This document shows, piece after piece, positions 4,186 through 4,421 of a DNA stretch of 44,815 nucleotides. Below the pieces are notes generated by a model, which ran no database searches, was not told where the DNA came from, and saw nothing but the letters and a program-made list of their open reading frames with translations. Position 1 is the first letter of the stretch; each line of letters begins with the position of its first letter. The stretch is from Candidatus Saccharimonadales bacterium. GTDB taxonomy: Bacteria > Patescibacteriota > Saccharimonadia > Saccharimonadales > UBA10212. The position numbers and the translations under genes were made by a program. The stretch spans positions 1 to 44,815 of the forward strand of contig JBBDZU010000003.1 of the NCBI GenBank assembly GCA_040900055.1. Direction: 5' to 3'.

Positions 4186-4421
4186 GGGTCCGGGCATAAG
4201 GAGTTAACCTGAGTAGTCTGTTGTTTATTAAAGAGGCGTACTTGGTCGCGAGGACTGTTTGAGCCCCTCACCATTTCCAGTGAAAATGGTGAGGGTGAGA
4301 TCCACAGCGAGCCCTGCCTGCCGGCAGGCAGGCTGTTTTAAACAACCGCTACTCAAGCTTGGCGACGCGCCCGGCGGTTTGCCACACTTTGCCGTTCAAA
4401 GTGTGAAAATTGTATTCTTGG
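4186..4421. ncRNA. Candidate structured RNA / paralogous repeat, copy 1 (unknown class, strand unresolved)
   Basis: Sits in a 504-bp gene-free gap. It shares an 18-nt 5' block (gggtccgggcataaggag) and a 50-nt 3' block (ggcgacgcgcccggcggtttgccacactttgccgYtcaaagtgtgaaaat) with 41977..42189. The interiors diverge but keep hairpins at matching positions. Lengths are collinear: 216 nt without the 20-bp palindrome versus 213 nt. Confidence 0.35.
4313..4332. repeat. 20-bp perfect palindrome CCTGCCTGCCGGCAGGCAGG (copy 1)
   Basis: Identical to 40333..40352. It is present in copy 1 of the RNA-like element but absent from the homologous point of copy 2 (gcgagc|ctgtt). Confidence 0.85.

Follow-up and report, generated by a model that had tools for sequence, protein, structure and literature searches.

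A new family of dispersed, structured non-coding repeats in the intergenic gaps of soil and sediment Saccharibacteria

A family of dispersed, non-coding intergenic repeats, new by its sequence, was found in Saccharibacteria of soil and sediment; by its kind, it joins the structured intergenic repeats already known from bacteria. The family was recognised in a stretch of DNA of 44,815 nt, here called the window, and its units measure about 175-270 nt. With roughly even confidence, we read the element as an intergenic repeat of the bcr1/REPIN kind that is structured, non-autonomous and probably mobile, and rank after this reading, in that order, a family of small-RNA genes, the RNA part of an RNA-guided transposon and an unselected duplication. 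The mobile-repeat reading is favored because the element is multi-copy and occupies non-orthologous sites that are empty in relatives, because inverted and nested units occur and ends are sharp beside unrelated flanks, because near-identical copies recur in samples with widely diverged host proteins, and because no promoter-like site lies upstream of copy 1 or copy 2. The genomes of Saccharibacteria, as of other CPR bacteria, are tiny and densely packed, and are thought to be poor in repeats and in known regulatory RNAs. The repeat family is notable because, in spite of this compactness, the element fills about 450 nt of a 504-nt gene gap.

The copies in the window and their parts are listed in Table 1. 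The 18-nt 5' block (GGGTCCGGGCATAAGGAG) occurs exactly twice, at 4186 and 41977, against a chance expectation of 0.03 matches even at 3 mismatches, and the 50-nt 3' blocks of copies 1 and 2 (c1 and c2) are identical at 49 of 50 positions, confirming the claim of an earlier sequence-only reading that two diverged, collinear copies share both blocks. The interior helices named in that reading were located where it had placed them, and the match in length that it described after removal of the 20-nt palindrome from copy 1 was also found (205 and 201 nt when measured up to where the 3' block ends), with ends that are exact and an interior identity of only about 60-70%. The copy-2 hairpin acaaagttgcc/ggcaagtttgt does exist, but with one GxG mismatch within its stem. 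The earlier description also has to be revised. The bounds proposed there (4186-4421 and 41977-42189) are too narrow, since the likeness continues beyond the 3' block through a small hairpin, H2, to 4453 and 42196; and, instead of a two-copy element, this is a dispersed repeat with at least three members in 45 kb (c1, c1' and c2), more in the same genome and others at non-orthologous sites elsewhere. The 504-nt gene-free gap around copy 1, to which the same reading had drawn attention, is real and among the largest in the window, but it also holds the third, inverted and diverged copy (c1').

Table 1. Coordinates of the element copies and of their parts in the window
Feature	Position	Strand	Remarks
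Copy 1 (c1)	4186-4453	+	GGGTCC through the end of H2; 208.6 bits with model R1, 252 bits with model R2
Copy 2 (c2)	41977-42196	+	full element; 137.5 bits with R2, a model built without c2
Copy c1'	3994-4184	-	diverged member, head-to-head with c1
c1 P1 5' strand CCGGGC	4190-4195	+	partner GCCCGG 4369-4374; C-G changed to U-A in c1'
c1 GGAG	4200-4203	+	opposite CGAC 4363-4366; G-C, tandem G.A/A.G, G-C; read from sequence and folds
c1 apical core AGGCGTACTTGGTCGCGAGGACTGTTTGA	4234-4262	+	signature CGAG..CTGTYTGA
c2 apical core AGGCGCCCTTGGGCGCGAGAGCTGTTTGA	42023-42051	+	conserved apex
c1 hairpin P6	4265-4295	+	perfect 12-bp stem
c2 hairpin P6	42055-42079	+	11 pairs, one GxG
Palindrome CCTGCCTGCCGGCAGGCAGG	4313-4332	+	20 nt, perfect; inserted in the 3' strand of P5a; missing from copy 2
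c1 3' block	4361-4410	+	in order: GGCGACGC, P1 3' strand, CGGTTTGC, H1 (4383-4405), GAAAAT
c2 3' block	42128-42177	+	P1 3' strand 42136-42141, hairpin H1 42150-42172
c1 H2 (TTCTTG/CAAGAA)	4415-4452	+	loop nests a second H1-like hairpin, 4423-4446

On the plus strand, the element folds into a long rod that opens with GGGU and the helix P1 (CCGGGC/GCCCGG), followed by an internal loop, AUAA/GC. The pairing of the 5' and 3' blocks through P1 had been anticipated from the sequence, and is present in the fold of copy 1 as well as in the RNAalifold consensus. The GGAG of copy 1 sits within the SD-like AUAAGGAG, and at the GGAG/CGAC position c1' has CGAG/CGAG, with the tandem G.A retained and the flanking pair changed. 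The rod helices P2-P5a differ in sequence between copies with their pairing kept, and the apical domain is conserved in sequence, consisting of AGGCGnnCUUGGnCGCGAGnnCUGUUUGA, hairpin P6 and GAGnUCnnnAGCGAGCC; its core is the most repeated interior part of the element in metagenome X10 (depth 66). The P6 site is hypervariable, with at least six different sequences, contigs from metagenomes X10 and X3 included, every one of them a hairpin, and the variants in these two metagenomes have compensated stems. On the 3' side of P1, CGGUUUGC is followed by hairpin H1 (CACACUUUG/CAAAGUGUG), GAAAAU and hairpin H2 (42182-42196 in c2). H1-like hairpins are present in the window only alongside copies of the element, one per copy, and the same module of H1, H2 and nested hairpin is carried by three other contigs of the source metagenome (X1).

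The alignment of c1 and c2 gave 54 pairs with RNAalifold, 12 of them with two-sided and 2 with one-sided changes, and none broken; in slid controls, which displaced the 3' partners by 1-3 columns, pairing was 32-44% and double changes numbered 0-1. Compared with dinucleotide shuffles, the plus-strand fold has z scores of -4.0 (c1) and -4.9 (c2). When four members were aligned (c1, c2, c1' and a copy from the relative L135, described below), 95.9% of the cells were paired and 23 of the 54 pairs showed double changes, compared with only 2-4 double-changed pairs in the slid controls, although pair counts from this alignment and from that of c1 with c1' lean toward the model, to which both alignments were partly fitted. 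A 394-nt contig from X10, a full-length homologue of the element, has three consecutive compensated pairs in P4 (42015-42017 with 42105-42107), a fourth pair there (42018/42104) that is re-registered after a 1-nt deletion, and joint changes in P6 at 42061/42073 and 42065/42069; among the P6 variants, a change of 42060 from G to C or T mends the GxG mismatch of copy 2. A three-sequence MAFFT alignment was structurally too poor to serve for modelling. By pair counts (12 of 54 in two copies, 23 of 54 in four members), the covariation that the sequence-only reading had proposed to look for is present, and a conserved fold with compensatory changes, a generic mark of structured non-coding RNA, is apparent in these partly model-fitted alignments. 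The step taken in that reading from such a pattern to a functional RNA holds in part: compensation keeps the fold, and the likeness is not due to chance, but the pattern is also seen in bcr1 and REPINs and is thus no proof of an RNA gene.

The same counts already contradict the simplest explanation, namely that the copies are plain duplicated DNA or an ordinary cluster of terminator hairpins whose overall fold is unselected, which we consider highly improbable. H1, H2 and the nested hairpin are indeed terminator-like and come right after stop codons, but the pairing of 100% and 95.9%, with many double changes, against 32-47% in slid controls is not what plain duplication would leave, and the combination of a diverged interior with exact ends, the restriction of H1-like hairpins to the copies and the recurrence of the family in many metagenomes speak against it as well.

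Left of copy 1, the adjoining 158 nt do not serve as spacer but belong to the inverted element c1'. The minus strand of c1' folds into the same rod and 3' hairpin (-79 kcal/mol, z -4.9), and R1, the covariance model built from the two copies, matches it over its full length (13.5 bits, E 0.0026, filters off); its global alignment to c1 and c2 gives a z of 3.4 in sense and of about 0 in antisense orientation. P1 of c1' is formed on this strand by 4180-4175 with 4037-4032, the core CGAGGACTGTCTGA lies at 4114-4101 and the H1-like hairpin at 4023-3998, and the parts in common with c1 and c2 are GGGCAT, CCTGAG, CGAGGACTGTCTGA (13/14), TGAGGG, GCCC and the H1-like hairpin. In a structure-fitted alignment of c1 and c1', 94% of the cells pair and 12 pairs are double-changed, of which P1 has one and H1 four. 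At the level of sequence comparison, c1' is the first covariation support for these two helices, which are invariant between c1 and c2. Between the 5' ends of c1' and c1, which are turned toward one another, lies only the AT-rich spacer AATTTAT of a few nucleotides. A 43-aa ORF with a hydrophobic stretch (4079-4210, plus strand) runs antisense to c1' and into the 5' block of c1. Lacking a ribosome-binding site and not conserved as a frame in the other copies, it is probably spurious.

Further copies were found in X1, where contigs present in single copy have a word depth of 27-28. There, word depth rises to about 110-134 for the 5' block, about 240 for the 3' strand of P1 and 334-444 for H1, which puts the 3' hairpin at 12-16 times single-copy depth, copy numbers being based here on assembler word depth in a metagenome and not on a closed genome. 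Public X1 contigs end inside the element blocks. Two further long copies have genome depth (about 27): contig c3 (365 nt), whose 5' flank is 87% like 4103-4197 and so has an inverted partner there too, and contig c4 (351 nt), in which a c1'-type unit begins 10 nt past a 5' block. A seeming short form without interior (a joint from 4197 to 4369 in X1) was rejected, as the same contig continues past 4197 with a diverged interior. Pieces 80-100% identical to the element, with 31-mers shared with the element only, occur in more than 20 other metagenomes from soil, rhizosphere, permafrost, groundwater and freshwater, and the family as a whole recurs across these sample types and sediment. These pieces start sharply at GGGTCC beside unrelated flanks, and the matches in X7-X10 have 41977 or 41980 as their first and 42176 or 42196 as their last position, again with unrelated flanks. 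In a permafrost contig, an element of the copy-1 type has the palindrome CCTGCCTGCCGGCAGGCAGG in the position known from copy 1. The collection of homologues that the sequence-only reading had called for thus comprises at least three members in the window, c3 and c4 in X1, more than 20 metagenomes and the relative L135. Within the source population, no site was seen to vary in the presence of a copy, which counts against mobility.

NrdJ places the host in the Saccharibacteria/Saccharimonadales (CPR), and the closest NrdJ outside the window, among 5.8 billion proteins searched, has 80% identity. The gene order nrdR-nrdJ-(small ORF)-ileS is conserved among relatives, and the gap after nrdJ, which is 504 nt here, measures 36-60 nt in L132, L133, L134/L135 and L136; in L108-L112 it spans 195-610 nt of DNA unrelated to the element. 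A covariance model built from c1 and c1' (R2) found one member in the relative L134/L135 (20.4 bits, E about 5e-5 to 9e-5), located in the map-ftsA gap, which in the window is 70 nt long. This copy has the GGGTCCGGGCAT start, a different rod, a recognisable core, a P1 with a G.U pair, two double changes in H1 and a compensated H2. No further copy was found by R1 and R2 scans of about 1.7 Mb of other loci, and none in 80 nrdJ-linked metagenome loci searched by blastn, nhmmer, regular expressions and both covariance models. Matches in L048, L030 and L034 proved to be coding sequence and not the element, and a stretch 3' of nrdJ in L109 resembles the element by eye, with a weak fold (z -2.1) and no match to the models. 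Genome contigs scanned with the 20-mer GACGCGCCCGGCGGTTTGCC gave chance matches in high-GC taxa only, none with the 5' block or hairpin; viral contigs scanned with three patterns gave nothing or chance matches, phage and plasmid collections gave no match to the element, and a chimeric six-frame 'protein' query for spurious ORF calls over other copies had no match. The map-ftsA (L135 5545-6422, also L134) and nrdJ-next-gene gaps are short in most relatives and enlarged in some (L108, L109, L110, L112) by inserts unrelated to one another, namely small ORFs, hairpins or the element, and both look like recurrent insertion hot spots.

The ends of the element are sharp, with the start at GGGTCCGGGCAT, and have no terminal inverted repeats: the beginning (GGGTCCGGGCAT...) and the end (...GGAAAGAAG) are not inverted copies of each other, and the sole inverted pair near them is the subterminal 6-bp P1. 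Neither was a target-site duplication, in the form of a direct repeat, found in the flanks of c2, the L135 copy or the metagenome copies. YTAT precedes GGG in five of seven independent 5' flanks, the flanks of c2, X8 and L135 ending in CAC, TTT and GTG, respectively, and the upstream flanks of different copies are otherwise unrelated. Among the window genes there is no transposase, reverse transcriptase, nuclease or Cas gene, and no TnpB, IscB, Y1 or DEDD; the neighbors of the copies are nrdJ, a 91-aa ORF, IleRS, and small membrane or unknown ORFs. Three of these observations weigh against the mobile-repeat reading: the window lacks a gene for a mobilising enzyme, the element has neither terminal inverted repeats nor target duplication, and YTAT is the only regularity at the junctions. 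Moreover, we know of no full-length autonomous parent of the element.

Directional ends of this type are also familiar from RNA-guided systems. HEARO/omega-RNA (IscB-TnpB) elements and PATEs are directional, lack inverted ends and duplications, have a hairpin near the right end and reach many copies, and the left ends of IS200/IS605 elements adjoin a tetranucleotide target motif. The element could accordingly be the ORF-less RNA part of an RNA-guided transposon, of the IscB/TnpB omega-RNA (HEARO) or IS110 bridge RNA kind, with its protein encoded elsewhere in the genome. It shares with HEARO and PATEs its directionality, an RNA-like scaffold and a possible tetranucleotide at the left junction, and its mobile look, the sharp ends without inverted repeats or duplication, the scaffold conserved with covariation and the YTAT in the left flanks, which recalls the IS200/IS605 target motif, all agree with such an origin. 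We nevertheless think it improbable, given that neither HEARO nor any other Rfam model matches, that no TnpB, IscB, Y1 or DEDD gene or other ORF of such a system accompanies the element in the window, and that the variable segments are paired together and not exposed as guides. Of the IS200/IS605-type features, the right-end hairpins are present as H1/H2; the absence of a local hairpin near the left end counts against the transposon origin.

In copy 1 the stop codon of nrdJ (4454-4456), and in copy 2 that of a 60-aa ORF (42198-42200), is 1 nt from the end of H2. Copies 1 and 2 and the L135 copy are all placed tail-to-tail with a convergent gene, H2 lying 1-2 nt from the stop codon, and on the strand of the convergent gene H2 is followed by a U-run; judged from its sequence, the H2 module looks like a terminator for the abutting gene, e.g., nrdJ. 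Wobble pairs on the plus strand, which are A-C mismatches on the minus strand, occur in P2 and P3 of c1, in the P6 variants and in P1 of the L135 copy and c1', and the plus fold of c2 is better than the minus fold by 13 kcal/mol. The plus strand is therefore the better candidate for the folded strand, a modelled assignment that is tentative because strand energies of c1 do not discriminate between plus and minus. In c1, c2 and the L135 copy, the genes around the element are encoded on the strand other than the putative folded one, and GC skew indicates that the folded strand does not serve as the lagging-strand template. This speaks against selection acting on DNA single strands at replication forks, and counts against the mobile-repeat reading.

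These features could be explained if the copies were an independent family of small-RNA genes, with plus-strand transcripts that start from promoters of their own and end at H1/H2 as a terminator shared by both directions. By analogy with 6S, Y or SRP RNAs, such a rod RNA would act in trans, e.g., by binding or sequestering a protein through its base and apex. Compensatory changes in every helix, a base and apex kept in sequence with stems kept only in pairing, the wobbles in P2, P3, P6 and P1 together with the better plus fold of c2, the tail-to-tail position in all three copies with a convergent neighbor, and a folded strand other than that expected if single strands at the replication fork were involved are in line with this explanation; in particular, an apical core that is the most conserved interior part, beside stems that are the least, is the pattern of a functional RNA and an argument against the mobile-repeat reading. 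However, a promoter consensus scan around c1 and c2 revealed no promoter-like site, the upstream flanks of the copies are unrelated, and the starts of c1 and c1', a few nucleotides apart in opposite directions, leave no room for outside promoters. The non-orthologous locations with empty sites in relatives, the nested and truncated units and the undiscriminating strand energies of c1 point in the same direction, and small-RNA genes are, in our judgement, a possible but rather unlikely account.

Searches against known families gave no assignment. Of Rfam 15, whose models include RNase P, SRP, tmRNA, 6S, HEARO, riboswitches and ribozymes, only 5S and 23S pass the gathering threshold in the window, and around c1, c2 and c1', in a search to E <= 10, the best match has an E of 1.1, all matches there being unrelated and far below threshold; the description of the element as unclassified by the sequence-only reading therefore holds. 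Protein coding was rejected, with a 34-aa ORF with SD in copy 2 only, a copy-1 frame without start codon and no synonymous-site bias. RNase P, SRP, tmRNA and 6S RNAs were dropped for lack of their defining features and of Rfam matches, and hammerhead, attC and type I toxin for lack of defining features. A retron non-coding RNA was discarded, as no reverse-transcriptase gene is adjacent, and so was a CRISPR array with H1 as its repeat, since H1 is single in each copy and X1 contigs with H1 continue into long unique sequence.

Among known repeats, bcr1, a repeat of about 155 bp from the Bacillus cereus group that is treated as a special class among mobile sequences, resembles the element in being short, non-coding and dispersed in gene gaps, at locations not conserved between relatives, and in a fold maintained by base-pair compensatory changes (PMC3184786). 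It differs in sequence and phylum, in its flanking 5-bp direct repeats and in its fold, which consists of two independent stem-loops as opposed to one long rod with two 3' hairpins; in addition, bcr1 is known to be transcribed, whereas the element is known here from its sequence. REPINs are hairpins with conserved ends whose spacer is kept paired by compensatory changes (PMC3116915). REPs and REPINs are like the element in that a small palindrome (here H1) is the most repeated part and inverted doublets occur (c1'/c1 and the c3 pair). REPINs, however, are 70-110 nt long and built from REPs of about 25 nt, compared with about 200 nt for the element, which is asymmetric, with different 5' and 3' blocks, has an apex conserved in sequence where the REPIN spacer is free, and is complete as a singlet (c2 and the L135 copy); REPs are mobilised by RAYT transposases, and no RAYT gene was seen in the window. 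Since both bcr1 and REPINs show compensatory change (PMC3184786, PMC3116915), such change is no argument against mobility.

Classical MITEs (Correia, ERIC, RUP, BOX) share with the element their size, intergenic site, hairpins and modular or nested variants, and some of them adjoin gene 3' ends, a position common to the element, and affect mRNA stability or termination (PMC3184786). As in MITEs, the element is short and non-coding and has several dispersed copies (window, X1 and L135), but the terminal inverted repeats and target-site duplications (e.g., TA) by which classical MITEs are defined are absent from it. Rod RNAs such as 6S, long SRP and Y RNA are similar in their length of about 200 nt, closing stem, conserved apical or basal domain and free stems; they are single- or few-copy syntenic genes with promoters, whereas the element is dispersed, nested and variable in site.

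On the favored reading of a mobile structured repeat, new copies would arise as insertions into gene gaps and, with neither terminal inverted repeats nor target duplication, insertion may depend on a single-strand/HUH-type or other trans-acting enzyme. The invariant base (P1, GA motif and H1) and the apical core could be the parts recognised by this machinery or by a host protein, the remainder of the rod being required only to stay paired. Once inserted, H1/H2 might act as a two-way terminator or as a stabiliser of the RNA end of the abutting gene, a role that would explain the tolerance of repeats in a very compact genome. There is also a slim chance that the RNA itself is the unit of dispersal or the working part of a new system. 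This idea is suggested by borders that are transcript-like, with a GGG start and an end just after a terminator-like hairpin, by a folded strand that coincides with neither the sense strand of the locus nor the single strand of the replication fork, and by a base and apex with the invariance typical of protein-binding sites. A mobile structured RNA specific to CPR bacteria and copied back into DNA by a trans-acting reverse transcriptase would fit, as would the scaffold RNA of an undescribed RNA-guided enzyme.

For genome work, the element is a marker for assembly breaks, public contigs of the source sample ending in it. It is also a candidate source of terminators and of plasticity in gene gaps, and a tractable entry point to the enzyme or RNA-binding protein by which the invariant base and apex would be recognised. 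Should it turn out that the RNA is what acts, it would represent a class of mobile or protein-binding RNA not described before, from a phylum of which little is known.

Several other features of the window were recorded. The palindrome CCTGCCTGCCGGCAGGCAGG is also present at 40333-40352, and thus forms an extra insert in two unrelated repeats; it occurs in copy 1 and not copy 2 of the element, and in copy A (40233...) and not copy B (42432...) of the second repeat, and behaves like a tiny mobile palindrome. This second repeat (about 100-190 nt; 40233-40420 and 42432-42575) is 98% identical over its first 100 nt and lies upstream of small plus-strand ORFs (40428-40850 and 42574-42801). TATAAT boxes and a strong terminator on the minus strand lie within it, copy A has a 30-nt hairpin insert, and the first 46 nt of the repeat are like the 3' end of 5S rRNA and its terminator (compare 43150-43195). 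The 3' part of the 23S rRNA (43632-44815, minus strand) is interrupted by a group I intron at about 43936-44701, with a sub-threshold Rfam Intron_gpI match (28.4 bits, E 7e-5) and an ORF for a LAGLIDADG homing endonuclease (44006-44608, minus strand). A TAGTTTGTAGTTTGTAG-type motif is found in both orientations just 5' of gene starts (101-129, 3948-3976, 20184-20212, 21570-21606 and 21976-22007) and may be a promoter-region or regulator-binding motif. Finally, a 3032-aa ORF (28514-37612, minus strand) with internal repeats of about 100 nt at 32526, 35043 and 35910 probably encodes a giant surface protein.
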